Source: a virus
Taxonomy: Duplodnaviria > Heunggongvirae > Uroviricota > Caudoviricetes
Strand: one strand, 5' to 3'
IMG/VR virus record: IMGVR_UViG_2657245664_000004
Span: 1 to 13,055 of that record
DNA: 13,055 nucleotides
Positions 1-13,055 of the stretch are shown one piece after another. Position 1 is the first letter of the stretch. Every line of letters begins with the position of its first letter. A model generated the notes under the pieces. That model was given only the letters and a program-made list of their open reading frames with translations, was not told where the DNA came from and searched no databases. The position numbers were made by a program, and so were the translations under genes.

Positions 1-85
1 TAACGAGGCACCGAGGCGTCGCATTCTTCAGATGGTTCAACCCTTAAGTTAGCGCTTATGGGGAGAATCCCTCGCCACCTCTGAT

Positions 86-493
86 GTGTCAGGCATCCTC
101 AACGCACCCGCACTTAACCCGCTTCGGCGGGTTTTGTTTTTTCCTAGCATTCTGGTTTACAATTCGCACGCCAGCCTGAACAACTGGCACCTGCTGCGCC
201 AGCAGAGACAACCGATGGCGCACGATACCAAATTACACAATTCTGATGATTCTGCCGTCTTTGCCAGCAGGCACGGGCGGCGTTCCCGCACTTTCAAATC
301 TGACTGGTTCCAGCATCCCCCATGCACTGAAGAACAGGCCGAGTGGCTAATTCAGTGCTACCGCAGACACGGATACGAGATTAAGAAAGCCCTCAGCCTC
401 GATTATCGTCACTGGATAATCTCCGTCAGGCTTCCTTACTCCGAGCGCCCACCGCGTCCGTCCCGCACATTCCAGCAACGCATCTGGAGGTAA
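86..493 (+). CDS. Hypothetical nin-region protein; start uncertain (GTG 86, or ATG 215 giving 93 aa)
   Basis: Open frame from the track. A strong intrinsic terminator hairpin (116-142) lies inside the 5' end if GTG 86 is used, so the in-frame ATG at 215 is the more plausible start. No recognisable family. Ends 1 nt before the next gene. Confidence 0.3.
   Translation: MSGILNAPALNPLRRVLFFPSILVYNSHASLNNWHLLRQQRQPMAHDTKLHNSDDSAVFASRHGRRSRTFKSDWFQHPPCTEEQAEWLIQCYRRHGYEIKKALSLDYRHWIISVRLPYSERPPRPSRTFQQRIWR
116..142 (+). terminator. Rho-independent terminator (nin-region tR2-like)
   Basis: Perfect 7-bp stem AACCCGC / GCGGGTT with TTCG tetraloop, followed by TTGTTTTTT. Confidence 0.5.
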
Positions 494-494
494 C

Positions 495-1544
495 GTGCGG
501 GTATTACTTCGACCTGTTCTGGTACCGGAACTCGGGCTGGTGATCGTTAAGCCGGGCCGTGAATCCATGCCGGTATTCCACAATACCCGGGTACTGGTGG
601 AGCCGGAACCGAAAAGCATGCGTAATCTGCCGTCCGGGGTTGTTCCTGCCGTTCGCCAGCCGCTAGTGGAAGACAAAACATTGCTGCCGTTTTTCAGTAA
701 CGCACGGGTGATTCGTGCTGCTGGTGGTGCTGGTGCATTGTCTGACTGGCTGTTGCGCCATATTAAATCCTGCCAGTGGCCACACGGCGATTATCATCAC
801 AGCGAAACCGTCATTCACCGTTATGGTACCGGCGCAATGGTGTTGTGCTGGCACTGCGACAACCAGCTGCGTGACCAGACATCCGAATCACTCGAGCAAC
901 TTGCTCATCAAAACCTGTCAGCATGGATGATTGACGTCATCGGTCACGCAATAAGCGGTACGCAGGAGCGTGAATTATCTTTGGCTGAATTATCCTGGTG
1001 GGCGGTCCGCAATCAGGTGGCGGACGCGCTACCGGAAGCGGTATTACGTCGTTCGCTGGGGTTGCGTGCAGAAAAAATCCGCTCAATGTACCGTGAAAGC
1101 GACATCGTACCGGGAGAGCAGACCGCCACCAGCATACTGAAACAGCGCACAAAAAATCTTGCGCCGCTGCCTCACGCCCACCAGCAACAGAACCCACCAC
1201 AGGAAAAGACGGTGGTCAGCATTGCCGTTGATCCTGAGTCTCCGGAATCTTTCATGAAACGACCTAAACGTCGCCGCTGGGTTAACGAGAAATACACACG
1301 CTGGGTGAAGACACAGCCGTGTGCGTGTTGTAGTAAGCCAGCCGACGATCCCCATCACCTGATTGGTCATGGTCAGGGCGGAATGGGAACAAAATCCCAC
1401 GATATTTTCACGCTACCGCTGTGTCGGGAGCATCACAACGAGCTTCATGCGGATCCGCTGGCGTTCGAAGAAAAGCATGGTTCTCAGGTTGATTTAATTT
1501 TTCGTTTTCTTGATCACGCCTTTGCAACCGGCGTGCTTGGGTAA
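495..1544 (+). CDS. DUF968 / YdfU-like prophage protein with C-terminal HNH-like Cys/His motif
   Basis: 349-aa ORF, the length I recall for E. coli Qin prophage YdfU. C-terminal CACCSKPADDPHHLIGHGQGG...CREHHNELH is an HNH/zinc-binding-like pattern. Sits upstream of rusA and Q as in lambdoid nin regions. GTG start. Confidence 0.7.
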   Translation: MRVLLRPVLVPELGLVIVKPGRESMPVFHNTRVLVEPEPKSMRNLPSGVVPAVRQPLVEDKTLLPFFSNARVIRAAGGAGALSDWLLRHIKSCQWPHGDYHHSETVIHRYGTGAMVLCWHCDNQLRDQTSESLEQLAHQNLSAWMIDVIGHAISGTQERELSLAELSWWAVRNQVADALPEAVLRRSLGLRAEKIRSMYRESDIVPGEQTATSILKQRTKNLAPLPHAHQQQNPPQEKTVVSIAVDPESPESFMKRPKRRRWVNEKYTRWVKTQPCACCSKPADDPHHLIGHGQGGMGTKSHDIFTLPLCREHHNELHADPLAFEEKHGSQVDLIFRFLDHAFATGVLG

Positions 1545-1556
1545 AAGGGGTTACTG

Positions 1557-1931
1557 ATGCGTATAGAGTTTGTTTTGCCTTACCCGCCGACGGTGAACAC
1601 CTACTGGCGACGTCGTGGCAGCACATATTTTGTATCAAAAGCCGGTGAGCGTTATCGCCGTGATGTGGCGCTTATTGTTCGCCAGCAGCGACTGAAATTA
1701 AATCTGTCCGGAAGGCTGGCGATCAGGATTATTGTGGAGCCACCGGATAAGCGTCGTCGCGACCTGGACAATATCCTGAAAGCACCGCTGGATGCGCTGA
1801 CGCATGCGGGAGTGTTAATGGACGATGAGCAGTTTGATGAAATCAATATCGTTCGTGGTCAGCCAGTATCTGGTGGACGTCTGGGGGTGAAGATTTACCC
1901 CATAATGCATGAAGAGCAGGTCAAAAAATGA
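1557..1931 (+). CDS. rusA: RusA-family Holliday junction resolvase
   Basis: 124-aa product with the conserved RusA core (PDKRRRDLDNILKAPLDALTHAGVLMDDEQ) as recalled from E. coli/phage 82 RusA. SD AAAGGGG before the ATG. Stop overlaps the Q start (ATGA). Confidence 0.85.
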   Translation: MRIEFVLPYPPTVNTYWRRRGSTYFVSKAGERYRRDVALIVRQQRLKLNLSGRLAIRIIVEPPDKRRRDLDNILKAPLDALTHAGVLMDDEQFDEINIVRGQPVSGGRLGVKIYPIMHEEQVKK

Positions 1932-2749
1932 AACTGGAAGATTTACCGAAATACTACTCCCCAAAATCCCCTTGCCTGACCGATGCATCGGCCTCAACGT
2001 CAAAAGATGCGCTGAGTATCACTGATGTGATGGCCGCGCAGGGCATGACACAGAATCGGGCTGAGATGGGATTTTCTGCGTTCCTGGGGAAAATGGGCAT
2101 CAGTATGAATGACAGGGCGCGGGCAACAGAATTACTGGCAGATTATGCACTCAGTCGGTGCGATCGTGTGGCGGCGTTGAGAAAACTTCCGGCAGAAATA
2201 AAACCGGTAGTGATGCGCATTATGGCTTCGTACGCTTTTGAGGATTATGCCCGCAGCGCAGCGAGTAAAAAGCAGTGCCCTTGTTGCTATGGGGAAAAAT
2301 TTATTGAAAGCGTAGTTTTTACAAACAAGGTCCAGTATCCGGATGGTAAGCCGCCGGTATGGGCAAAGTGTACGAAAGGTGTGTATCCGTCTTACTGGGA
2401 AGAATGGAAAAAAGTCAGGGAGGTGGTAAAAGTTGCCTGTCCGGAGTGTGGCGGAAAGGGTGAGGTTTCCACCGCCTGTAAGGATTGCCGTGGGCGTGGT
2501 GTCGCCATTCACCGTGAAGAGTCGGTAAAACGTGGTATGCCTGTTATCAGAGACTGCCAGCGTTGTGGTGGTCGTGGCTATGAAAGACTACCATCAACGG
2601 AGGTATTTAATGCTATATGCGAGGTGACAAACCAGATAACACGCGCGTCATGGGAAAAAACAGTTAAGAAATTCTATGATGCGCTGGTGACCCGGTTTGA
2701 TATTGAAGAAGCATGGGCTGAGCGGCAGTTAAAAAAGGTAACTAGGTAA
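1928..2749 (+). CDS. Q: Late-gene antiterminator Q (Q82-like, Phage_antitermQ family)
   Basis: 273-aa ORF immediately upstream of a pR'-like promoter and tR'. Three DnaJ-type CxxCxGxG zinc-finger motifs (CPECGGKG, CKDCRGRG, CQRCGGRG). Position after rusA is typical for lambdoid Q. Confidence 0.8.
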   Translation: MKLEDLPKYYSPKSPCLTDASASTSKDALSITDVMAAQGMTQNRAEMGFSAFLGKMGISMNDRARATELLADYALSRCDRVAALRKLPAEIKPVVMRIMASYAFEDYARSAASKKQCPCCYGEKFIESVVFTNKVQYPDGKPPVWAKCTKGVYPSYWEEWKKVREVVKVACPECGGKGEVSTACKDCRGRGVAIHREESVKRGMPVIRDCQRCGGRGYERLPSTEVFNAICEVTNQITRASWEKTVKKFYDALVTRFDIEEAWAERQLKKVTR

Positions 2750-2754
2750 CAAGG

Positions 2755-2782
2755 TTGATTTTTCCGGAATCTGTGGTAAATT
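2755..2782 (+). promoter_or_regulatory. Late promoter pR'-like (-35 TTGATT, extended -10 TGgTAAATT); qut site expected to overlap
   Basis: TTGATT at 2755-2760, 16-bp spacer, TG-n-TAAATT at 2774-2782. TAAATT is the lambda pR' -10 hexamer. Located directly after the Q stop. Confidence 0.5.
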
Positions 2783-2830
2783 CGTCATAACGATGGGCGT
2801 TTTATGCCTGGCGTTAGAAGAGTTTCTACA

Positions 2831-2856
2831 ACCCGCCGCTGAGCGGGTTTTTTATT
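2831..2856 (+). terminator. tR'-like intrinsic terminator of the late transcript
   Basis: Stem CCCGC / GCGGG (plus flanking A-T pair), loop CGCTGA, then TTTTTTATT. About 50 nt downstream of the predicted start site. Confidence 0.6.
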
Positions 2857-2892
2857 GCGAAATTAATTACGGACCGTTATTATTCTGCTCCC

Positions 2893-2968
2893 GGCCCTTT
2901 AGCTCAGTGGTGAGAGCGAGCGACTCATAATCGCCAGGTCGCTGGTTCAAATCCAGCAAGGGCCACCA
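2893..2968 (+). tRNA. ileZ: tRNA-Ile2 (anticodon CAT, lysidine type; ileZ-like)
   Basis: Cloverleaf folded by hand: acceptor GGCCCTT / AAGGGCC, D-arm GCTC/GAGC, anticodon loop CTCATAA, T-arm GCTGG-TTCAAAT-CCAGC, encoded CCA end. Resembles E. coli ileX rather than tRNA-Met. Same Q-downstream location as ileZ in Stx phages. Confidence 0.85.
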
Positions 2969-3069
2969 TCACAAACCGCCATTAGCTTATCAGGAAGAGC
3001 AGACGACACGATAACAGGGTTGTTGGTGCGGGGGGCGGGTCCCCGATGGCGGTCCATTATCGGTATTCA

Positions 3070-3146
3070 GCGTTGTTAGCTCAGCCGGACAGAGCAATTG
3101 CCTTCTAAGCAATCGGTCACTGGTTCGAATCCAGTACAGCGCGCCA
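3070..3146 (+). tRNA. tRNA-Arg (anticodon TCT, reads AGA/AGG; argO/argN-like)
   Basis: Acceptor GCGTTGT / ACAGCGC (one G-U pair), D-arm GCTC/GAGC, anticodon stem ATTGC/GCAAT with loop CTTCTAA, T-arm ACTGG-TTCGAAT-CCAGT, encoded CCA. Confidence 0.85.
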
Positions 3147-3256
3147 TATTCATTCTTCCAGATTCCTTCCGGCAGAGCCTTATACTGAAATATACCTGGC
3201 TCAGGATATTGTTGAAAATATTATATGTTTGTCAAAAATAAAAGTTCTGTTAAGTA

Positions 3257-3610
3257 TTGATTGAATATTTGTTATACGGTCTAATGGTTTTTTCAGCATT
3301 AAATATTTATCATTCATATGGTGTGGGTAGAGTGAATATTGATGAGGCGTCGGGGTGTTTCATCCTTAGGCAGCGTATTGATATAGTCAATGCAGCACGA
3401 GCAAAGGCCTTCAGCCGTTTGACAGTTTTGTTCTGTACTCCTGATCGTCTTTCGGGAAGAGACGTTATTATTCTGAATAGTGATGCTATACAGAGGGTTT
3501 GCGATGAGTTCATGGTTGCTAATTCAGAATTATTTGCTCTTGTTCAGGAGTACAACAGAATAGCCAGGACCTGTGGTATGGATGAACTTCGGATTACTCA
3601 TCTGGGGTAG
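3257..3610 (+). CDS. Hypothetical protein in the stx-equivalent cargo position; start uncertain (TTG 3257 or ATG 3284)
   Basis: Only long ORF between the tRNAs and the terminator at 4002. No good SD and no recognisable family. Confidence 0.35.
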   Translation: MIEYLLYGLMVFSALNIYHSYGVGRVNIDEASGCFILRQRIDIVNAARAKAFSRLTVLFCTPDRLSGRDVIILNSDAIQRVCDEFMVANSELFALVQEYNRIARTCGMDELRITHLG

Positions 3611-4001
3611 ATACATATCTGGATTATCACCTGTTACGGTAAAAAGTGATTGCTTACTGTTTTTGTGAATGGCATTGCAGCAGCCGGATAATGTCAGTGC
3701 TGGCTGACGGTGTGCTGGTGGCGGGTGTGGTGGTTGTTGCTTTCCCGTTGCTGAAAAAGAAAACGCCAGACTGTTAGCCGGGTATCAGTTAGCGGGAGAA
3801 ATTTTTAAATACTTCACAATTCAGGCGGTTGACTGTTGTCTGGTTTGCGGGGAGTTTGTTAAAAGAAACTGGCATGGTGAATCCCCCTGTGCGGTGGGGC
3901 AATCAGCGAGTAGGTATATGGGATAATCGCGGATTCAGGTGCTGGTACTGAATTCACCGGGAGGCACCCGACACCATGCAATGGCACATAGCGCCACTCT
4001 C

Positions 4002-4031
4002 CAGCCCCTCTCCGGAGGGGCTGTTTATATT
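4002..4031 (+). terminator. Rho-independent terminator
   Basis: Perfect 9-bp stem CAGCCCCTC / GAGGGGCTG with TCCG loop, followed by TTTATATTGATTTT. Lies just 3' of the convergent minus-strand ORF. Confidence 0.55.
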
Positions 4032-4057
4032 GATTTTGTCAGATGTGAGTAAACTCC

Positions 4058-4393
4058 TTATGGACTTTGTTGTTTTAGTCCATAAGGACATATTTGCAGA
4101 GTGCAACGGTTATTAAAGCATTCATTCAATACGTTATCTGTATTTGTAGGGCATTCCTGGCTGTTTTTGATTAAATTCCAGAATGTTTTATTGAATGGTA
4201 CTACGTTGTAAATGGTTACAGGTAGCACTTTGTTATTGAGCATGATGCCTGTGTGAGTCAGTGTAAATATACTTTCAGGAGGTAAGAAAGCATCCGATTG
4301 ATACCAGATTATTAATTTTATTTTACTCCATATGACTGAAAAAGATATTCCGCATGATGGCTGGATAACTGTATCAATCACAATCCACTTCAT
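4058..4393 (-). CDS. Hypothetical AT-rich cargo protein (111 aa, C-terminal Cys-containing region)
   Basis: Minus-strand ORF with good SD (AAGGAAAGTAA-ATG). Much more AT-rich than the phage backbone. Four Cys in [26 protein letters not shown]. Divergent AT-rich intergenic region 4394-4637 is suited to promoters. Confidence 0.55.
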
Positions 4394-4652
4394 TTACTTT
4401 CCTTGTTTATGCCTTGCTGGTGATGTTCTGAAAAGTATAAATGATATTTTTGAATTAAACCATAGAGCAGAATTATTTTTCTGATGTTGTTTATTGTTTA
4501 TTTAAATACAGGGTGGTTTATATCTCGTCTTGTAGTTTATCCATGCATATCTGCTTGATAATCAGGTTTTTATTTAAGGTATGGTTTTGTGTTTTTTCTG
4601 TATTACATGTCAGGTATTTTAAAGAATTATTTTTCAGATGGTGGAAAGAACC

Positions 4653-4841
4653 ATGGCATTTAAACACTATGATGTTGTCAGGGCGGCGCCGCCGTCAGAT
4701 CTTGCGGAAAAGCTGACACATAAACTGAAAGAGGGCTGGCAGCCGTTTGGTAGTCCGGTGGCCATAACCCCTTATACCCTGATGCAGGCGATTGCAGCAG
4801 AAGGTGATGTGGTGGTCAGCGGTGCAACTGAGCCGGAGTGA
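4653..4841 (+). CDS. Small conserved lambdoid-prophage protein upstream of the lysis cassette (possibly DUF1737-type)
   Basis: ORF MAFKHYDVVRAAPPSDLAEKLTHKLKEGWQPFGSPVAITPYTLMQ... preceded by GGAAAGA SD. An in-frame ATG at 4638 is an alternative start. Family name is from memory and not verified. Confidence 0.5.
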   Translation: MAFKHYDVVRAAPPSDLAEKLTHKLKEGWQPFGSPVAITPYTLMQAIAAEGDVVVSGATEPE

Positions 4842-5084
4842 TACTACGTCATCGTACTGGCCCGGCATTCCAGGCCATAAAAGACAGTCTGGCAGTGGGA
4901 CTAAATACACTGACGCTGACGGATATTACCAAAAATGCAACGTATGGCGTTGAGATAGAAAGTCTGGTGCTGGAGATAAATGCACCGGCATCATCATAAA
5001 AAGTGAGCCAGTCAAATGGAAGGTATCGTTAAACTCACCGGTAGTGTCAGTGGGTCGTCTGAGACGCTTGCATGAGTTATCAGA

Positions 5085-5116
5085 GCCATCAGTAGTTAAC
5101 TGGTGGCTTTTTTATT
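5085..5116 (+). terminator. Putative intrinsic terminator upstream of the holin gene
   Basis: 8-bp stem GCCATCAG / CTGGTGGC (one G-U pair), 7-nt loop, then TTTTTTATT. Confidence 0.4.
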
Positions 5117-5148
5117 GTTGTCAGCTTCCGGATAACGGGAGACGGGGT

Positions 5149-5364
5149 ATGGACCAGATGGAAAAAATCACAACAGGTGTGTCATACACCACGTCAGCGG
5201 TGGGAACGGGCTACTGGTTCCTGCAGTTGCTGGACAGGGTTTCCCCGTCTCAGTGGGCGGCAATAGGCGTGCTGGGGAGTCTGCTGTTTGGGCTGCTGAC
5301 ATATCTGACTAACCTGTATTTCAAAATCAGAGAGGACCGTCGTAAGGCTGCACGGGGAGAGTAA
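5149..5364 (+). CDS. S: Class II holin (phage 21 S-like pinholin) with dual start
   Basis: 71-aa product [26 protein letters not shown]...[17 protein letters not shown] closely resembles S21 as recalled. Two TM segments. Met1 and Met4 give the antiholin/holin dual-start arrangement. SD GGGAGA upstream. Confidence 0.85.
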
Positions 5365-5368
5365 TTCA

Positions 5369-5719
5369 ATGACTCAAAACTATGAACTGATTGTGAAAGG
5401 GATCCGCAATTTTGAGAATAAAGTTACGGTAACTTTAGCGTTACGGGACAAAAAACGCTTTGACGGTGAAATTTTTGACCTGGACATCTCGCTGGACCGT
5501 GTTGAAGGTGCCGCGCTGGAGTTTTATGAGGCAGCAGCCAGAATGAGCATCAGACAGGTCTTCCTGGATGTTGCTGCCGGGTTATGTGAAGGGGATGAGC
5601 AGTCGCCGGAAAAGCGCCCCGTAATTTTAGAGGCGCAGAATGTATGGATAACCTACAAAGGAAAGCTACCGGGAAGAATTACTGGTTCTCTGAAGACTCC
5701 TCCGGAATCACAACCTTAA
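5369..5719 (+). CDS. Uncharacterized protein encoded between holin and endolysin (possibly YdfR/DUF1327-like)
   Basis: 116-aa ORF with strong SD (GGGGAGAG) starting 5 nt after the holin stop. No TM or signal peptide. Qin prophage ydfR occupies the same S-to-R position; homology not verified. Confidence 0.55.
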   Translation: MTQNYELIVKGIRNFENKVTVTLALRDKKRFDGEIFDLDISLDRVEGAALEFYEAAARMSIRQVFLDVAAGLCEGDEQSPEKRPVILEAQNVWITYKGKLPGRITGSLKTPPESQP

Positions 5720-5782
5720 GTCACTGACCGGAACAGATAAACCTGTCCGTGGGCAGAAACCGATAAATCCTGATAAATATCC

Positions 5783-6316
5783 ATGAACGCAAAAATCAGA
5801 TACGGCCTGTCGGCTGCCGTTCTGGCACTGATTGCCGTCGGTGCGCCCGCGCCTGATATTCTCGACCAGTTTCTGGATGAAAAAGAAGGTAACCACACAA
5901 CGGCATACCGCGATGGGTCCGGCATCTGGACCATCTGTCGGGGTGCCACGATGGTGGATGGAAAACCCGTTTTTCCCGGTATGAAACTGTCGAAGGAAAA
6001 ATGCGACCAGGTCAACGCCATTGAGCGTGATAAGGCGCTGGCATGGGTGGAGCGCAATATTAAAGTACCACTGACCGAACCACAAAAAGCGGGTATAGCG
6101 TCATTCTGTCCCTATAACATTGGCCCCGGTAAGTGTTTCCCGTCGACGTTTTATAAGCGGCTGAATGCCGGTGATCGTAAGGGCGCATGCGAGGCGATTC
6201 GCTGGTGGATAAAAGATGGTGGGCGCGATTGCCGCATACGTTCAAATAACTGCTATGGACAGGTTATTCGTCGTGACCAGGAAAGCGCATTAGCCTGTTG
6301 GGGGATAGAGCAGTGA
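5783..6316 (+). CDS. R: SAR endolysin (GH24 lysozyme, R21-like)
   Basis: N-terminal Gly/Ala-rich weakly hydrophobic segment ([17 protein letters not shown]) consistent with a signal-arrest-release domain. Catalytic E-x8-D-x5-T pattern ([18 protein letters not shown]). Pairs with the pinholin. Confidence 0.85.
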
Positions 6317-6774
6317 GCAGAGTCGCCGCGATTATTTATGCTTTGGTTATCTGCATCATCGTCTGCCTGTCGTGGGCGGTCAATCATTACCGTGATAACG
6401 CCATCGCCTACAAAGAACAGCGTGATAAAAAAGTCAGTGAGCTGAAGCAGTCGATCGCCACCATCGCTGACATGCAGCAGCGTCAGCGTGATGTTGCTGC
6501 ACTCGATGCAAAGTACTCGAGAGAATTAGCCAATGCGAAAGCTGAAAATGAAACTCTGCGCGCTGATGTTGCCGCTGGTCGTCGTCGGTTGCACATCAAA
6601 GCAGTCTGTCAGTCAGTGCGTGAAGCCACCACCGCCTCCGGCGTGGATAATGCAACCAGCCCCCGACTGGCAGACACCGCTGAACGGGATTATTTCACCC
6701 TCAGAGAGAGGCTGATCACTATGCAAAAACAACTGGAAGGAACCCAGAAGTATATTAATGAGCAGTGCAGATAG
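6313..6774 (+). CDS. Rz: Rz i-spanin
   Basis: GTG start overlapping the endolysin stop. N-terminal TM then coiled-coil region. Near-identical to lambda Rz as recalled (…[21 protein letters not shown]). Confidence 0.85.
6533..6715 (+). CDS. Rz1: Rz1 o-spanin (outer-membrane lipoprotein embedded in Rz, +1 frame)
   Basis: 60-aa ORF wholly inside Rz. Lipobox LVVVGC and proline-rich stretch PPPPPAW. Matches lambda Rz1 as recalled. Confidence 0.85.
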
Positions 6775-6805
6775 AGCTGCCCATATCGATGGGCAACTCA
6801 TGCAA

Positions 6806-7099
6806 TTATTGTGAGCAATACACACGCGCTTCCAGTGGAGTATAAATGCCTAAAGTAATAAAACCGAGAAATCCATTTACGAATGTTTGCTGGGTTTCTG
6901 TTTTAACAACATTTTCTGCGCCGCCACAAATTTTGGCTGCATCAACAGTTTTCTCCTGTCCAATTCCCGAAACGAAGAAATGATGGGTGATGGTTTCCTT
7001 TGGTGCTACTGCTGCCGGTTTGTTTTGAACAGTAAACGTCTGTTGAGCACATCCTGTAATAAGCAGGGCCAGCGCAGTAGCGAGTAGCATTTTTTTCAT
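6806..7099 (-). CDS. bor: Bor lipoprotein (serum-resistance, Bor/Iss family)
   Basis: 97-aa minus-strand ORF MKKMLLATALALLITGCAQQTFTVQNKPAAV... essentially identical to lambda Bor as recalled. Lipobox LITGC. Confidence 0.9.
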   Translation of the reverse strand: MKKMLLATALALLITGCAQQTFTVQNKPAAVAPKETITHHFFVSGIGQEKTVDAAKICGGAENVVKTETQQTFVNGFLGFITLGIYTPLEARVYCSQ

Positions 7100-7307
7100 G
7101 GTGTTATTCCCGATGCTTTTTGAAGTTCGCAGAATCGTATGTGTAGAAAATTAAACAAACCCTAAACAATGAGTTGAAATTTCATATTGTTAATATTTAT
7201 TAATGTATGTCAGGTGCGATGAATCGTCATTGTATTCCCGGATTAACTATGTCCACAGCCCTGACGGGGAACTTCTCTGCGGGAGTGTCCGGGAATAATT
7301 AAAAACG

Positions 7308-7808
7308 ATGCACACAGGGTTTTTACCGCGTTTATGGTTCGCGGGTTTGTCTCTCATGCTCCCCGTTCTGCTGCTTGGTTCTTCACGTTACGTGGTTGTC
7401 TCCTTTACCCGGAAGATCTGGAGCGCGTCACGCAGATTATTAATGGTGGGAAAAACGGCATTAAAGACCGCCGTGAACGTTACGTCAAAGCTAAAGCCGC
7501 ATTGGTGTGAGGTCTATGTGGGAATTGAAATGATTGTCGGCCTGATTGCTGCCTTGCTGGCAGTAATAGCCGGTGCTTTTGGTCTGGGTAAATCTCGCGG
7601 TGCAAGTATCGCTGAGACAAAAGCGAACCAGCAACGCACTAAAGAACGTGCAACTGCTACTGAAGTCGTTGCAATACGCCGGGTAGAAACAACAAAAGGA
7701 GCCTGGGATGTACAGCAGATTGTTAATCATCTTCCTGATGGCGATGTTGACCGTGAGTTGCGCGAAAGATTTACCCGAAAAAACTGCAGTAACAGACACG
7801 GCTTGTGA
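7308..7808 (+). CDS. Putative envelope/membrane protein (lambda p78 / YbcV-like position); start uncertain
   Basis: ORF in the bor-to-cos interval where lambda and DLP12 carry a putative envelope protein. The C-terminal two-thirds (from MIVGLIAALLAVIAGAFGLGKS..., ATG about 7530) looks like a small TM protein; the N-terminal 70 aa are less protein-like. 3' end overlaps the next ORF by about 100 nt. Confidence 0.4.
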   Translation: MHTGFLPRLWFAGLSLMLPVLLLGSSRYVVVSFTRKIWSASRRLLMVGKTALKTAVNVTSKLKPHWCEVYVGIEMIVGLIAALLAVIAGAFGLGKSRGASIAETKANQQRTKERATATEVVAIRRVETTKGAWDVQQIVNHLPDGDVDRELRERFTRKNCSNRHGL

Positions 7809-7923
7809 CTGGGTGAACATCATCTACCTCACTGAGCACGATATTACCGTGCAGGATAAGCAGACGAAGCGGGACATATTGGCGCATAACAAATCAGTGC
7901 AGGCTAACTGTAGAATGTATTGA
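7708..7923 (+). CDS. Putative small lipoprotein (lambda p79 / YbcW-like position)
   Basis: 71-aa ORF with a signal-peptide-like N-terminus ending in a marginal lipobox (LTVSC). Start may be an internal Met. Confidence 0.4.
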   Translation: MYSRLLIIFLMAMLTVSCAKDLPEKTAVTDTACDWVNIIYLTEHDITVQDKQTKRDILAHNKSVQANCRMY

Positions 7924-8076
7924 AACTAATACTTTTGTAAGCGAATGTGTGTAAGTGCGACATGGTTGTGTGTTTTATCTAAGAATTGTTTTGCCGTAAA
8001 AGAGCATTTTGTGGTTGTAAAAAATGTGGGGAACTCGCTATAGTTCAGCCATAGAAAGCAGCTTTTCATTTTTTTT

Positions 8077-8097
8077 AAGCCTCATTTGAGGCTTTTT
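8077..8097 (+). terminator. Rho-independent terminator upstream of the cargo cassette
   Basis: Stem AAGCCTC / GAGGCTT, loop ATTT, then TTTTT. Insulates the cassette from read-through of the lysis/bor region. Confidence 0.5.
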
Positions 8098-8123
8098 GCA
8101 CATTTAGAAATTGAGTAAATGGC

Positions 8124-8161
8124 ACATATAGTGTTTTCAGTGTTAAAAAAACACTATATGT
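8124..8161. promoter_or_regulatory. 14-bp perfect inverted repeat (candidate operator or 5' stem-loop) in the cassette promoter region
   Basis: ACATATAGTGTTTT (8124-8137) and AAAACACTATATGT (8148-8161) are exact reverse complements around a 10-nt spacer. Contains a TATAGT -10-like hexamer. Ends 25 nt before the ATG at 8186. Confidence 0.45.
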
Positions 8162-8185
8162 AGCACTACAATAGGAGATTCCACT

Positions 8186-8386
8186 ATGAGCCCGGCTGAG
8201 TTCTACGATTTCTATGGCATTAAACCTGCAGAGATGATGACTGGAGAAACTGTTAACAACTTTGCTTCCAGGGTACTTGCTCAACAAACGAGTACGAGTG
8301 GTAGTACCGGCGTTTGGTACTCTCAAGGTACTGCAGCGCAGGCTAAGCAAAATCAAAGTACACATCATCAACTTTACACCTACTAA
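8186..8386 (+). CDS. Hypothetical small protein (66 aa), first gene of the cargo cassette
   Basis: Strong SD AGGAG 8 nt before the ATG. Soluble, with a Ser/Thr/Gln-rich C-terminal half. Stop is 5 nt before the next ATG, suggesting translational coupling. AT-rich relative to the backbone. Confidence 0.6.
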   Translation: MSPAEFYDFYGIKPAEMMTGETVNNFASRVLAQQTSTSGSTGVWYSQGTAAQAKQNQSTHHQLYTY

Positions 8387-8391
8387 ACACC

Positions 8392-9294
8392 ATGCCTAAT
8401 TGGAGTGACGTACTGGGCGAGATGACGGCTCTCGCCCAGAAGAGTCCGATGGATGAGGTTCGCCGTAAATATTTATTACAACTGTCTAATCACACTGGAA
8501 GAAATGTAATTACATATTATTCCGGATGGTTGCAACATGGTGGTGCAGAAGTCCGACATCTCACCCTGATGACAGATGATGATAAAAATGGATTAATGAC
8601 TGTTATTAATGGTTTAGATGTTACAAAGGGGGTGGATTTAATATTACATACCCCTGGAGGTGATATCGCTGCCTTAGAGTCTATTGGTCATTATCTGCGT
8701 TCTAAGTTTGGGACTGATATCAGAGCTATCGTTCCTATGATTTCAATGTCATGTGGTACCATGCTTGCGTGCTGTGCTAATGAAATCATAATGGGTAAAC
8801 AGTCCAATATTGGCCCGATTGACCCTCAGTTTAATGGATTTTCTACACATGCTATTATTGAGGAATGGAATAGAGCTCAGGCGGAAATTTTTAACAATCC
8901 AGCAGCTGTGCAAATGTGGCAGTTTATACTTCAGAAACTCAACCCCACTATTATCGGAGAGTGTGAAAAAGCTATCCAATGGGCGAATGAGATTGTCAAG
9001 CACTGGCTTATGACGGGTATGTTTGCAAATGATCCGGAGTCAGAAACAAAAGCAACTCATGTATGCTCAGAGCTGAACAATCATCATACAACTTACACTC
9101 ATTCGAGACATATCCATTTCGATAAAGCTCAGAAAATTGGATTGAATGTTACAGAACTGGAAAGTGATCAAGTCCTCCAGGATTTGGTTTTGACCATACA
9201 TCACAGTTACATGCACTCGTTTGGTGGAGCCCCGATCGCAAAGATCATAGAAAACCATAATGGGAATGCTATGATTTGGAATATGCAATCGTAA
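8392..9294 (+). CDS. ClpP/crotonase-fold serine peptidase (S49 / SDH-proteinase-like)
   Basis: 300-aa ORF with motifs typical of ClpP-clan S49/SDH peptidases: LILHTPGGD..., a candidate nucleophile Ser in VPMISMSCGTMLACCANEIIMG, and NIGPIDPQ. Family assignment is by motif recognition, not a search. Confidence 0.65.
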   Translation: MPNWSDVLGEMTALAQKSPMDEVRRKYLLQLSNHTGRNVITYYSGWLQHGGAEVRHLTLMTDDDKNGLMTVINGLDVTKGVDLILHTPGGDIAALESIGHYLRSKFGTDIRAIVPMISMSCGTMLACCANEIIMGKQSNIGPIDPQFNGFSTHAIIEEWNRAQAEIFNNPAAVQMWQFILQKLNPTIIGECEKAIQWANEIVKHWLMTGMFANDPESETKATHVCSELNNHHTTYTHSRHIHFDKAQKIGLNVTELESDQVLQDLVLTIHHSYMHSFGGAPIAKIIENHNGNAMIWNMQS

Positions 9295-9317
9295 GAACCT
9301 ATTTACACACCATATTA

Positions 9318-9341
9318 GCCTCGCAGTAGCGGGGCTTTTTT
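9318..9341 (+). terminator. Rho-independent terminator downstream of the cargo cassette
   Basis: Stem GCCTCGC / GCGGGGC (one G-U pair), loop AGTA, then TTTTTTAT. Followed by lambda-like right-end sequence. Confidence 0.6.
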
Positions 9342-9429
9342 ATGCGCATCGCACGCGCACATCAAAGAGAGTCTTTCAGTAATGATTCTGGATATCATAG
9401 CTATAAATACAATTGATAGTTATTTTCAT

Positions 9430-9654
9430 TTTGGCGGGTCCTTTCCGGCGATCCGACAGGCTACGGGGCGGCGACCTCGCGGGTTTTCGCTATTTATGAA
9501 AATTTTCCGGTTTAAGGCGTTTCCGTTCTTCTTCGTCGTAACTTAATGTTTTTATTTAAAATACCCCCTGAAAAGAAAGGAAACGACAGGTGCTGAAAAC
9601 GAACTTTTGGGCCTCTGTCGTTTCCTTTCTCTGTTTTTGGCCGTGGAATGAACA
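9430..9654. other. cos: cos site (cosQ-cosN-cosB); cosN 12-nt cohesive end GGGCGGCGACCT at 9466-9477
   Basis: Exact lambda cohesive-end sequence at 9466-9477. Flanking sequence matches the lambda right-end/left-end junction as recalled, with a few substitutions. cosB-type inverted repeat GAAAGGAAACGACAG ... CTGTCGTTTCCTTTC precedes Nu1. Confidence 0.85.
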
Positions 9655-10200
9655 ATGGAAGTCAACAAAAAGCAGCTGGCTGACATTTTCGGTGCGAGTA
9701 TCCGTACCATTCAGAACTGGCAGGAACAGGGAATGCCCGTTCTGCGAGGCGGTGGCAAGGGTAATGAGGTGCTTTATGACTCTGCCGCCGTTATAAAATG
9801 GTATGCCGAAAGGGATGCTGAAATTGAGAACGAAAAGCTGCGCCGGGAGGTTGAAGAACTGCGCCAGGCCAGCGAGGCAGATCTCCAGCCAGGGACTATT
9901 GAGTACGAACGCCATCGACTTACGCGTGCGCAGGCCGACGCACAGGAACTGAAGAATGCCAGAGACTCAGCTGAAGTGGTGGAAACCGCATTCTGTACTT
10001 TCGTGCTGTCGCGGATCGCAGGTGAAATTGCCAGTATTCTCGACGGGATCCCCCTGTCGGTGCAGCGGCGTTTTCCGGAACTGGAAAACCGACATGTTGA
10101 TTTCCTGAAACGGGATATCATCAAAGCCATGAACAAAGCAGCCGCGCTGGATGAACTGATACCGGGGTTGCTGAGTGAATATATCGAACAGTCAGGTTAA
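9655..10200 (+). CDS. Nu1: Terminase small subunit Nu1
   Basis: 181-aa product MEVNKKQLADIFGASIRTIQNWQEQGMPVLRGGGKGNEVLYDSAAVIKWYAERD... matches lambda Nu1 essentially residue for residue as recalled, including the N-terminal winged-HTH. Confidence 0.95.
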   Translation: MEVNKKQLADIFGASIRTIQNWQEQGMPVLRGGGKGNEVLYDSAAVIKWYAERDAEIENEKLRREVEELRQASEADLQPGTIEYERHRLTRAQADAQELKNARDSAEVVETAFCTFVLSRIAGEIASILDGIPLSVQRRFPELENRHVDFLKRDIIKAMNKAAALDELIPGLLSEYIEQSG

Positions 10201-11353
10201 CAGGCTGCGGCATTTTGTCCGCGCCGGGCTTCGCTCACTGTTCAGGCCGGAGCCACAGACCGCCGTTGAATGGGCGGATGCTAATTACTATCTCCCGAAA
10301 GAATCCGCATACCAGGAAGGGCGCTGGGAAACACTGCCCTTTCAGCGGGCCATCATGAATGCGATGGGCAGCGACTACATCCGTGAGGTGAATGTGGTGA
10401 AGTCTGCCCGTGTCGGTTATTCCAAAATGCTGCTGGGTGTTTATGCCTACTTTATAGAGCATAAGCAGCGCAACACCCTTATCTGGTTGCCGACGGATGG
10501 TGATGCCGAGAACTTTATGAAAACCCACGTTGAGCCGACCATCCGCGATATTCCGTCGCTGCTGGCGCTGGCTCCGTGGTATGGCAAAAAGCACCGGGAT
10601 AACACGCTCACTATGAAGCGTTTTTCCAATGGTCGTGGCTTCTGGTGCCTGGGCGGTAAAGCGGCAAAAAACTACCGTGAAAAGTCGGTGGATGTGGCGG
10701 GTTATGATGAACTTGCTGCCTTTGATGAGGATATTGAACAGGAAGGCTCTCCGACGTTCCTTGGCGACAAACGTATTGAAGGCTCGGTCTGGCCAAAGTC
10801 CATCCGTGGCTCCACGCCCAAAGTGAGAGGCACCTGCCAGATTGAGCGTGCAGCCAGTGAATCCCTGCATTTTATGCGTTTTCATGTTGCCTGCCCGCAC
10901 TGCGGGGAGGAGCAGTATCTTAAATTTGGCGACAAAGAGACGCCGTTTGGCCTCAAATGGACGCCGGATGACCCCTCCAGCGTGTTTTATCTCTGCGAGC
11001 ATAATGCCTGCGTCATCCGCCAGCAGGAGCTGGACTTCACTGATGCCCGTTATATCTGCGAAAAGACCGGGATCTGGACCCGTGATGGCATTCTCTGGTT
11101 TTCGTCATCCGGTGAAGAGATTGAGCCGCCGGACAGCGTGACCTTTCACATCTGGACGGCGTACAGCCCGTTCACCACCTGGGTGCAGATTGTCAAAGAC
11201 TGGATGAAAACGAAAGGGGATACGGGAAAACGTAAAACCTTCGTAAACACCACGCTCGGTGAGACATGGGAAGCGAAAATCGGCGAACGTCCGGATGCTG
11301 AGGTGATGGCGGAGCGGAAAGAGCATTATTCAGCGCCCGTTACAACACGCTGA
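10175..11353 (+). pseudogene. A: Terminase large subunit A, N-terminal about 388 codons only (truncated by deletion)
   Basis: Start overlaps the Nu1 3' end as in lambda. Matches lambda gpA from MNISNSQVNRLRH... to ...ERKEHYSAPV, then diverges and stops (TTR*). Lambda gpA is 641 aa. Confidence 0.85.
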
Positions 11354-12597
11354 TGGCGGCGGCGAAAAAGGATTATGAAGCGACGCTGAAAAAGCCGAAA
11401 CAGTCCGGCGTGAAGGTGTCTGCGGGCGATCGTCAGGAAGACAGTGCTCATGCTGCCCTGCTGACGCTTCAGGCAGAACTCCGGACGCTGGAGAAGCATG
11501 CCGGAGCAAATGAGAAAATCAGCCAGCAGCGCCGGGATTTGTGGAAGGCGGAGAGTCAGTTCGCGGTACTGGAGGAGGCGGCGCAACGTCGCCAGCTGTC
11601 TGCACAGGAGAAATCCCTGCTGGCGCATAAAGATGAGACGCTGGAGTACAAACGCCAGCTGGCTGCACTTGGCGACAAGGTTACGTATCAGGAGCGCCTG
11701 AACGCGCTGGCGCAGCAGGCGGATAAATTCGCACAGCAGCAACGGGCAAAACGGGCCGCCATTGATGCGAAAAGCCGGGGGCTGACTGACCGGCAGGCAG
11801 AACGGGAAGCCACGGAACAGCGCCTGAAGGAACAGTATGGCGATAATCCGCTGGCGCTGAATAACGTCATGTCAGAGCAGAAAAAGACCTGGGCGGCTGA
11901 AGACCAGCTTCGCGGGAGCTGGATGGCAGGCCTGAAGTCCGGCTGGAGTGAGTGGGAAGAGAGCGCCACGGACAGTATGTCGCAGGTAAAAAGTGCAGCC
12001 ACGCAGACCTTTGATGGTATTGCACAGAATATGGCGGCGATGCTGACCGGCAGTGAGCAGAACTGGCGCAGCTTCACCCGTTCCGTGCTGTCCATGATGA
12101 CAGAAATTCTGCTTAAGCAGGCAATGGTGGGGATTGTCGGGAGTATCGGCAGCGCCATTGGCGGGGCTGTTGGTGGCGGCGCATCCGCGTCAGGCGGTAC
12201 AGCCATTCAGGCCGCTGCGGCGAAATTCCATTTTGCAACCGGAGGATTTACGGGAACCGGCGGCAAATATGAGCCAGCGGGGATTGTTCACCGTGGTGAA
12301 TTTGTCTTCACGAAGGAGGCAACCAGCCGGATTGGCGTGGGGAATCTTTACCGGCTGATGCGCGGCTATGCCACCGGCGGTTATGTCGGTACACCGGGCA
12401 GCATGGCAGACAGCCGGTCGCAGGCGTCCGGGACGTTTGAGCAGAATAACCATGTGGTGATTAACAACGACGGCACGAACGGGCAGATAGGTCCGGCTGC
12501 TCTGAAGGCGGTGTATGACATGGCCCGCAAGGGTGCCCGTGATGAAATTCAGACACAGATGCGTGATGGTGGCCTGTTCTCCGGAGGTGGACGATGA
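11353..12597 (+). pseudogene. H: Tail tape-measure protein H, C-terminal about 414 codons (fragment fused behind truncated A)
   Basis: Matches the C-terminal half of lambda gpH as recalled (...KKDYEATLKKPKQSGVKVSAGDRQ... to ...MRDGGLFSGGGR). The H reading frame is open from 11302 but has no upstream counterpart. The whole head module and most tail genes are absent between A and H. Confidence 0.85.
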
Positions 12598-12923
12598 AGA
12601 CCTTCCGCTGGAAAGTGAAACCCGGTATGGATGTGGCTTCGGTCCCTTCTGTAAGAAAGGTGCGCTTTGGTGATGGCTATTCTCAGCGAGCGCCTGCCGG
12701 GCTGAATGCCAACCTGAAAACGTACAGCGTGACGCTTTCTGTCCCCCGTGAGGAGGCCACGGTACTGGAGTCGTTTCTGGAAGAGCACGGGGGCTGGAAA
12801 TCCTTTCTGTGGACGCCGCCTTATGAGTGGCGGCAGATAAAGGTGACCTGCGCAAAATGGTCGTCGCGGGTCAGTATGTTGCGTGTTGAGTTCAGCGCAG
12901 AGTTTGAACAGGTGGTGAACTGA
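12594..12923 (+). CDS. M: Minor tail protein M
   Basis: 109-aa product MKTFRWKVKPGMDVASVPSVRKVRFGDGYSQRAPAGLNANLKTYSVTLSVPREE... matches lambda gpM as recalled. Start overlaps the H stop. Confidence 0.9.
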   Translation: MKTFRWKVKPGMDVASVPSVRKVRFGDGYSQRAPAGLNANLKTYSVTLSVPREEATVLESFLEEHGGWKSFLWTPPYEWRQIKVTCAKWSSRVSMLRVEFSAEFEQVVN

Positions 12924-13055
12924 TGCAGGATATAGCGGTCCGGCGGTCGCGGATGAATATGACCAGCCGACGTCCGATATCACGAAGGATAAATGTCAGC
13001 AATGAAATAACACAGACCGTCAATAAGAAACTGGAAGACCAGAGTGCGGCAATCC
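12923..13055 (+). pseudogene. Collapsed tail-gene remnants: L start codons fused to an internal L segment, then a probable J C-terminal fragment
   Basis: ATGCAGGATAT (lambda L start, MQDI) runs directly into DNA encoding SGPAVADEYDQPTSDITKDKC (internal L) in another frame. This is followed by ...NEITQTVNKKLEDQSAAI, which resembles lambda J C-terminal sequence from memory. Confidence 0.55.

Follow-up and report, generated by a model that had tools for sequence, protein, structure and literature searches.

The Lit protease of prophage e14 is a protease effector that is activated by the Gol peptide. A closer counterpart of the locus considered here is FS_HP_SDH_sah, presumably a hypothetical protein together with a PF01972 protease from enterobacterial phage-inducible chromosomal islands (PICIs), with SDH_sah being, we assume, the former Pfam short name of PF01972. 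The pairing of a PICI-encoded hypothetical protein with SDH_sah is said to block phages, in work by Fillol-Salom et al. that appeared in Cell in 2022. To our knowledge, no mechanism has been published for FS_HP_SDH_sah or for the module described below. A pair with roles in both toxin-antitoxin (TA) function and defense, ietAS, combines an S8 protease toxin with an ATPase antitoxin (PMC13069673). In the passage of a metagenome paper where the names appear, DefenseFinder is given as listing FS_HP_SDH_sah and a gene called SDH_sah (PMC13532340). We analyzed a stretch of 13,055 nucleotides (the window) from a virus of the Caudoviricetes (IMG/VR record IMGVR_UViG_2657245664_000004, positions 1 to 13,055), which carries a mobile two-gene cassette encoding a 66-amino-acid (aa) protein and a 300-aa protease. 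The pair is rare in E. coli yet part of a very widespread module, which we read, with somewhat better than even confidence, as a protease-based switch of the TA or abortive-infection (Abi) kind.

The 300-aa protein passes the Pfam family PF01972, “ClpP-like SDH-type serine proteinase,” over residues 22 to 255, with 79.1 bits against a cut-off of 31.3. Its score with NCBIfam NF047768 is 92.7, below the cut-off of 250 for that model, and on these profiles the protease is a distinct, very conserved 300-aa subfamily that is related to NF047768 but is not its equivalog. The hallmarks of the subfamily are an MPNW start and the motifs HTPGG, MSxGTM, and GKQSxxGPxDPQ; the protein also matches phrog_11747, to which no function is assigned there. 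AlphaFold2 (AF2), given 25 relatives, yields a confident model (pLDDT, 87.6; pTM, 0.84) with the ClpP/crotonase fold. ClpP is its best structural match, and the top viral matches come from giant viruses and bear the name “serine dehydrogenase proteinase.” Across these 25 relatives, which are 54 to 82% identical to the window protein, HTPGG, MSxGTM, and GPxDPQ are invariant, as are S120, K136, D144, H237, H240, and H270/271/275. PGAP puts the protease start at M20 (281 aa). Since the MPNW N terminus is kept across phyla in the 25-relative alignment, we prefer the start at 8392, which gives 300 aa.

A profile alignment places Ser120, within MSCGTM, on the catalytic serine of S. pneumoniae ClpP (1y7o), and HTPGG aligns with the SPGG oxyanion motif of ClpP by hhalign. 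Ser120 is the predicted nucleophile. We take the family name SDH to stand for the order Ser-Asp-His, as in the Pfam description, and Ser120-Asp144-His237 is a candidate triad, suggested by the invariance of the three residues and by their S-D-H order. By position, D144 would take the place of the ClpP histidine, and H237 would take that of the ClpP aspartate. An export signal was seen in neither cassette protein, and the sequence and the model together predict an SDH-type serine protease that has the ClpP fold, resides in the cytoplasm, and is proteolytically active. The first-pass annotation of this DNA, made from the letters alone, had proposed a ClpP-fold serine peptidase, and the PF01972 match, the AF2 fold, and the structural match to ClpP bear this out. 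None of these searches placed the protein outside the peptidases or in a well-characterized family with a housekeeping or virion role.

Homologues of the protease number more than 7,800 at an E value of ≤0.001. To survey their surroundings, we used the best 80 of at least 584 confirmed loci, with one genome per species, whose proteases are 49 to 83% identical to that of the window. These diverse loci come from Proteobacteria, Firmicutes, Actinobacteria, Chloroflexi, Planctomycetes, Acidobacteria, Nitrospirae, Spirochaetes, Verrucomicrobia, and candidate phyla, and, among archaea, from Methanosarcinaceae and Methanimicrococcus. Such high conservation combined with a patchy spread implies frequent horizontal transfer and strong constraint.

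In almost all 80 loci, a same-strand open reading frame (ORF) of 55 to 90 aa lies directly 5′ of the protease gene. Iterative partner hidden Markov models (HMMs) were run against the full set of 9,775 six-frame segments from these loci, and the merged model yielded 70 matches, 67 immediately upstream of the protease, 3 immediately downstream (L053, 1639 to 1815; L059, 2823 to 3011; and L063, 4604 to 4816), and 0 elsewhere. The merged model covers 64 of the 80 diverse loci, and most of the other 16 show the N-terminal motif by eye. Overlap with the protease start was seen for 34 of 66 upstream partners, and another 21 end within 15 nt of that start (55/66). Conversely, a look-up of three relatives of the small protein found 18 places, and at every one the next gene encoded the protease. 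On this comparative evidence, the pairing of the small gene with the protease is constant, and the proposal that the 66-aa protein is a real partner, already made in the first-pass annotation, is well supported by the adjacency, by the confinement of the HMM matches to the side of the protease, and by the reverse look-ups. In this the pair resembles type II TA and Abi systems, in which an operon of two genes has a small member that is closely coupled to the other and does not occur by itself.

The two genes are also constrained at the codon level. Compared with an allele at 80% identity, with synonymous sites near saturation, the dN/dS ratio is 0.063 for the small gene, against more than 2 for its two off-frames, and 0.017 for the protease gene. 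Both genes are, by this measure, real and under strong purifying selection. The small protein matches phrog_25714. Modeled alone by AF2, it forms helices at residues 3 to 10 and 23 to 37, followed by a low-confidence, probably disordered tail (residues 38 to 66) that carries the motif VWYSQGT. Three blocks are conserved in the partner alignment, namely, an N-terminal φxxx[YF]xx[FL][GN][IL], a central [ND][PA]xxF[AG]xx[FV], and a tail [VI]xYSxx[ST].

Phmmer iteration from the window small protein alone gave no matches beyond Enterobacteria, and the wider link required profile-profile comparison. By hhalign, the enterobacterial partner family is homologous to the most widespread partner type, A (98.2%; E value, 2.8e-14), and A is linked more weakly to type B (75.8%). 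A HMMER pass over 1.84 billion cluster representatives retrieved 257 A/E-type relatives, nearly all of them stand-alone and 52 to 90 aa long. In one 993-aa protein (P0241), the N-terminal block of the small protein was matched in eight separate stretches, which may reflect a repeat protein or a low-complexity artifact. The conservation of a C-terminal ...NAKLE in B-type partners was dropped as evidence, as it stems from the overlapping frame of the protease MPNWN start. Overall, evolution is much faster in the partner than in the protease: the partner families barely recognize each other, while the proteases stay at least 50% identical. Since the partner thus diverges beyond sequence recognition and the protease does not, searches that use a small-partner profile likely undercount the module.

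Comparison with other prophages delimits the cassette. The unrelated lambdoid prophage YPE10 (L002) has only 8003 to 9391 in common with the window, at 80.5% identity, and five more backbones (L097 to L101) share 8003 to 9294. The relative AHB5 (L003), which lacks the insert, is homologous to the window up to 7322 and from 9414 on, with ybcV-ybcW-ylcI in between. The whole interval that differs from this DLP12/Qin-like relative is, then, 7323 to 9413, and its left part is a relic of a lysis cassette rather than cargo. On the right, a pre-cos backbone element of ~60 nt, starting at ~9336 (9333 to 9394), is 87 to 91% identical in other prophages and lies several kilobases from the cassette elsewhere (e.g., at 14258 to 14311 in L092), marking the right edge of the insert. 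Because this element recurs far from cassettes, and given the limits of sharing, the mobile unit extends from 8003 to ~9335. The GC content is 0.37 to 0.42 across ~7950 to 9450, versus 0.48 to 0.55 in the flanks, or roughly 0.40 against 0.52. A gap of 5 nt separates the two ORFs, and no Shine-Dalgarno sequence (SD) precedes the protease start, which fits translational coupling.

The ORFs, the strong SD, the 14-bp inverted repeat, the two hairpins with T-runs, and the low GC content had all been read in the first-pass annotation, and each is present at the place given there. Its view of a self-contained two-gene accessory cassette also holds: the pair is absent from the close relative L003, so that it does not occupy the same context in all relatives, and it occurs both on phage backbones that are unrelated and at another moron site, the Q-holin interval. 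What changed is the extent, since the limits proposed at that stage, 8077 to 9341, enclose a genuine cassette but give a unit slightly smaller than the one obtained from the relatives. A terminator had been noted on either side as well; both hairpins with T-runs exist, but the upstream one (T1) is not a plain insulator, because a conserved promoter-like box (P1) precedes it inside the mobile unit. The absence from L003, the deviant GC content, and the terminator are those of a moron, the promoters being consensus matches only, and the segment from 8003 to ~9335 is a horizontally mobile moron carrying one operon.

A homologue is present in 80 of 5,426 complete E. coli genomes, and in 7 of these it is nearly identical to that of the window. 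Among 50,697 phage records, 7 have a homologue, none of them a lambdoid isolate; a few plasmids carry one as well. The interval from Rz to the terminase genes holds the pair in the window, in L001, L002, and L097 to L104, on lambda-, P22-, and HK97-like backbones, and the interval from Q to the holin gene holds it in E. coli Nissle 1917, in strain 2022CK-00450, and in L089, and likewise in L093. Elsewhere, the pair lies between the late activator gene C and the lysis genes of a Shewanella Mu-like phage, adjoins HicAB in Porphyromonas phages, follows the minor tail genes of Gordonia phage BeeGee, and stands at a prophage end next to the integrase gene in Pseudomonas. It is the only evident cargo of environmental elements of ~5 kb (L111 to L114; e.g., L111, 2928 to 7612), which consist of an integrase gene, a 164-aa ORF, the pair, and a rolling-circle Rep gene. 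Among 141 immediate neighbors in the diverse loci, no third gene recurs, and integrases are the commonest family (7 neighbors). The neighbors include BrxL (BREX), a PARIS-like AriA, MADS, restriction-modification genes, AbiL, and PADLOC candidate families. The Rz-terminase and Q-holin intervals appear, from their contents, to behave as hotspots of conflict genes. We also observed an Acb2/Tad1-like anti-defense gene directly 3′ of the cassette in L100 (8322 to 8558) and a CdiI/bacterial RNase A pair in the Q-holin site of L101 (2859 to 3980).

The leader of the operon has the same order in nine enterobacterial alleles, that is, a promoter-like box, a hairpin with a T-run, a palindrome, and the SD. 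The hexamers of P1 and the motif in its spacer are kept in these alleles, some of which have coding regions that have diverged to 67 to 72%, and the −10-like TAyATn of the second promoter-like site (P2) is semiconserved in the other alleles. T1 was not listed by the consensus terminator scan; it folds strongly (leader z = −4.8), and all 7 of its pairs are kept in the nine alleles, several of them by changes on both sides. In the inverted repeat, the outer arms are kept in all nine alleles with compensatory changes, around a loop of 10 to 26 nt. Taking the two leader hairpins together, 7 of 16 base pairs show pairing-preserving changes on both sides. For the palindrome, the covariation is compatible with an operator as well as with an RNA stem. 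T1 may end a short leader RNA of ~50 nt, act as an attenuator, or just stop read-through while P2 drives the operon; the cassette promoters are consensus matches, which makes expression of the operon from its own promoters putative. An Rfam search of the leader found no known RNA family, with sub-threshold matches to microRNA-like hairpins only. A terminator in the leader is not a general trait of the module, since a perfect-stem hairpin with a T-run precedes the small ORF at 5 of 65 diverse loci, versus 12 of 345 control windows. The leader architecture is, as far as these alignments tell, specific to the enterobacterial lineage.

The pair is, we propose, a switch of the TA or Abi kind that uses a protease for immunity or addiction, a reading to which we assign a probability of about 0.55 and in which both toxicity and defense are predicted. 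The highly conserved protease would be the effector, and the fast-evolving small protein, made in excess from its strong SD, would be the cognate regulator. With its two N-terminal helices as the anchor, the small protein would bring the tail motif [VI]xYSxx[ST] to the active site or its vicinity, where it would act as a pseudosubstrate or inhibitor. Once a phage infects or the element is lost, the small protein would be removed or outcompeted, and the freed protease would degrade host or phage proteins, halting phage production. We favor this TA-like reading because of the operon layout, the occasional reversal of the gene order, the carriage at moron sites and on minimal elements, and the nearby defense genes. 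The regulator model is drawn, in addition, from the half-disordered small protein with its conserved tail motif and from the conserved palindrome that overlaps a promoter-like site. A precedent for a serine-protease toxin with an antitoxin is offered by ietAS. More tentatively, and with the odds against the proposal as a whole, we suggest a switch shared across bacteria, archaea, and mobile elements, in which a ClpP-fold protease with a rearranged Ser-Asp-His triad would be held by the disordered tail of the partner as a pseudosubstrate and released upon infection or element loss to cleave a universally conserved target, with the enterobacterial leader adding RNA-level control through a leader RNA or an attenuator. 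In this respect, the protease is at least 50% identical from E. coli prophages to methanogens.

Several observations weigh against the switch. Neither protein is matched by a PADLOC v2 model at E values up to 1, and hhalign of the protease family against E. coli ClpP aligned the SPGG motif alone. Profile search and AF2 revealed no recognizable DNA-binding domain in the small protein, so that autoregulation via the palindrome is unsupported. The defense genes among the neighbors were noted without a background control, and both lambdoid insertion sites lie within the late transcript, which makes a lytic-cycle expression that benefits the phage possible. The module has probably been named already, as FS_HP_SDH_sah. 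The first-pass annotation had known of no named defense system of this composition, which is probably wrong, given that DefenseFinder lists FS_HP_SDH_sah with what is presumably the same composition. We infer the anti-phage role, the direction of regulation, and the triad, the first of these partly from the presumed identity with FS_HP_SDH_sah.

The direction of regulation could also be the opposite, the small protein being a sensor or adaptor for a phage product that activates or targets the protease, in a Gol-Lit-like fashion. The fast divergence of the partner next to proteases that remain at least 50% identical fits an arms-race component, and the small protein has a disordered tail with a short linear motif; on the other hand, the partner is under strong purifying selection in the enterobacterial lineage (dN/dS ratio, 0.063), and its strong SD ahead of an SD-less, coupled protease gene suggests an excess of partner, which is more inhibitor-like. 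We regard a sensor as possible but unlikely and weakly prefer an inhibitor because the strong SD is on the partner and the protease is coupled behind it. Decidedly unlikely, in our opinion, is a pure addiction or stabilization TA module that serves prophages and small integrative elements and has no direct anti-phage role. Several features of the loci agree with it (frequent overlap of the protease gene by the small gene ahead of it, an order that is sometimes reversed, carriage as the sole cargo of small elements with integrase and Rep genes, and the position beside HicAB in Porphyromonas phages), but the neighbors comprise many defense genes, and the homologous PICI system is reported to block phages, although TA and Abi roles can coexist.

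The location of the lambdoid and Mu-like pairs, always in the late operon (3′ of Q or of Mu C, or between the lysis genes and cos), would instead suit a protease that is expressed from the late transcript and benefits the phage during the lytic cycle by processing or destroying proteins of the host or of competitors, through counterdefense or help in lysis or assembly, with the small protein as its chaperone or substrate; the Acb2/Tad1-like anti-defense gene next to the cassette in L100 points the same way. Such a role is improbable, however, as most copies reside outside phages, including on chromosomes of archaea and of various bacteria and on small integrative elements, almost all isolated phages lack the pair, and the defective prophage of the window retains both genes intact. 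The conserved N-terminal part and variable tail of the small protein resemble the leader and core of a precursor peptide, from which the protease might release a signaling or antimicrobial peptide by maturation. We consider this very improbable, since there is no export signal and no linked transporter or modification gene and since the best-conserved element of the tail is a short motif and not a hypervariable core. A displaced or decaying prohead protease, lastly, is rejected outright, as the first-pass annotation had already done: many prohead proteases share the ClpP-clan fold, and the gene lies near cos, but the protein has no similarity to EC14 gpC (BLASTP E value, 13), and EC14 retains an S49 gene of its own within the head module. 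The dN/dS ratio of 0.017, the absence from lambda-like isolates, the occurrence outside phages, and the position between the lysis genes and cos contradict it as well.

If the defense reading is true, the pair is a compact immune or addiction module of ~1.1 kb (8186 to 9294) with a ClpP-fold protease at its core; E. coli Nissle 1917 and clinical isolates carry it, and it recurs across most prokaryotic phyla. The analysis makes its mechanism testable by providing the unit to clone, the residues S120, D144, and H237, and the three partner blocks. The genetic prediction is that the protease alone is toxic and that the partner rescues.

The window is the right half of a DLP12/Qin-type lambdoid prophage. 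Its genes run from DUF968, RusA, Q, two tRNAs, holin, lysozyme, Rz/Rz1, and bor to cosN, Nu1, and the terminase gpA (Table 1). The gpA gene (ORF at 10175 to 11353, encoding the ATPase domain and the start of the nuclease domain) is fused at ~11341 to 11353 to the C-terminal part of a tape measure gene (ORF at 11353 to 12597). E. coli EC14 (L001) is collinear with the window over 6309 to 11341 at 98%, and ~10 kb of EC14 head and tail genes is deleted in the window, whose prophage is therefore defective. The exact window was not found in the complete E. coli genome set, where the best coverage was 70%. Remnants of a second lysis cassette, situated between bor and the cargo, match the lysis region of prophage L093 at 79% identity. 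Further upstream, the region from Q to the lysis genes contains a strong match to the gammaproteobacterial small RNA STnc100 at 3843 to 4032 (123 bits versus a gathering score of 47), and two tRNA genes lie just 3′ of Q (2893 to 2968 and 3070 to 3146), one with the anticodon CAT, called tRNA-Met by ARAGORN and tRNA-Ile in the record of a relative, and the second a tRNA-Arg (TCT). The ORF at 4058 to 4393 (minus strand), in a block of very low GC content (~0.30 to 0.34), is the counterpart of an L003 gene annotated as the anti-adapter protein IraM.

Table 1. Coordinates of the cassette, its leader, and the neighboring prophage features in the window
Feature	Position	Strand	Basis or remarks
bor	6806-7099	minus	
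Relic of second lysis cassette, between bor and cargo	7355-7923	+	GH19 endolysin fragment and spanin pair; EC14 annotation, phrog_1026, phrog_1275
Rz-like i-spanin of relic	7518-7808	+	
Embedded o-spanin (lipoprotein) of relic	7708-7923	+	
Mobile two-gene cassette	8003..~9335	+	Delimited by comparison with L002, L097-L101, and L092
Promoter-like box P1	8015..8044	+	TTGTAA, 18 nt, TATAGT; cTGTGG in spacer; consensus scan
Hairpin T1, AAGCCTCA/TGAGGCTT, and T-run	8077..8097	+	Stem-loop 8077-8094, T-run to 8097; putative terminator or attenuator
Promoter-like site P2	8103..8132	+	TTTAGA, 18 nt, TATAGT; −10 in left arm of inverted repeat; putative, consensus scan
Perfect 14-bp inverted repeat, 10-nt spacer	8124..8161	+	Arms 8124-8137 and 8148-8161; putative operator or 5′-UTR stem-loop
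Shine-Dalgarno AGGAG	8173-8177	+	8 nt before ATG at 8186; read directly
66-aa protein ORF	8186..8386	+	
300-aa protease ORF	8392..9294	+	Predicted Ser120; candidate Asp144 and His237
Intrinsic terminator T2	9317..9341	+	Hairpin 9317-9336, 8-bp stem with 6 G-C pairs, then T-run; consensus scan
cosN core, GGGCGGCGACCT	9466-9477	+	
Nu1	9655-10200		After cosN

A literature search returned no paper on this module, the name FS_HP_SDH_sah occurring in one metagenome paper only, and the module is not mentioned in the DefensePredictor, domain-centric discovery, P2/P4 hotspot, and lateral-transduction papers. The Tai system was set aside as different and not based on a protease (PMC11364771). Like the lambdoid morons bor and lom, the cassette is an AT-rich insert with promoter-like sites and a terminator, is present or absent among relatives, and sits beside bor and in the lysis-cos and Q-holin hotspots; unlike them, it is a two-gene operon whose conserved, structured leader combines a promoter-like box with a terminator hairpin and a palindrome. 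The protease shares with PF01972 and NF047768 the ClpP fold and the invariant Ser, Asp, and His in that order, but its subfamily always comes with a small partner gene. It is only ~14% identical to ClpP (MEROPS S14), from which it differs by long helical insertions, by a C-terminal extension, by an apparent swap of His and Asp in the sequence, and by the absence of a linked AAA+ partner. Nor does it resemble lambda gpC, SppA (S49), or NfeD 1510-N: it has no sequence similarity to gpC, and its gene lies outside the head module. In 1510-N, we assume that the lysine of the dyad lies at about Ser+41, a position at which the window family has no invariant lysine.

As for two-component systems, ietAS and Lit likewise have a protease effector and are carried by mobile elements or defective prophages, but their proteases have unrelated folds, and the partner here is a protein of ~60 aa instead of an ATPase or a phage peptide. 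The nearest relative is probably FS_HP_SDH_sah. Provided that SDH_sah corresponds to PF01972, the window has its PF01972 protein, at 79.1 bits, and an adjacent, codirectional small gene. Both would then be two-gene accessory units of phage-related elements of Enterobacteria in which a hypothetical protein accompanies a PF01972 protease; FS_HP_SDH_sah is PICI borne, whereas the window pair belongs to a lambdoid prophage, with the lysis genes on one side and cos on the other.

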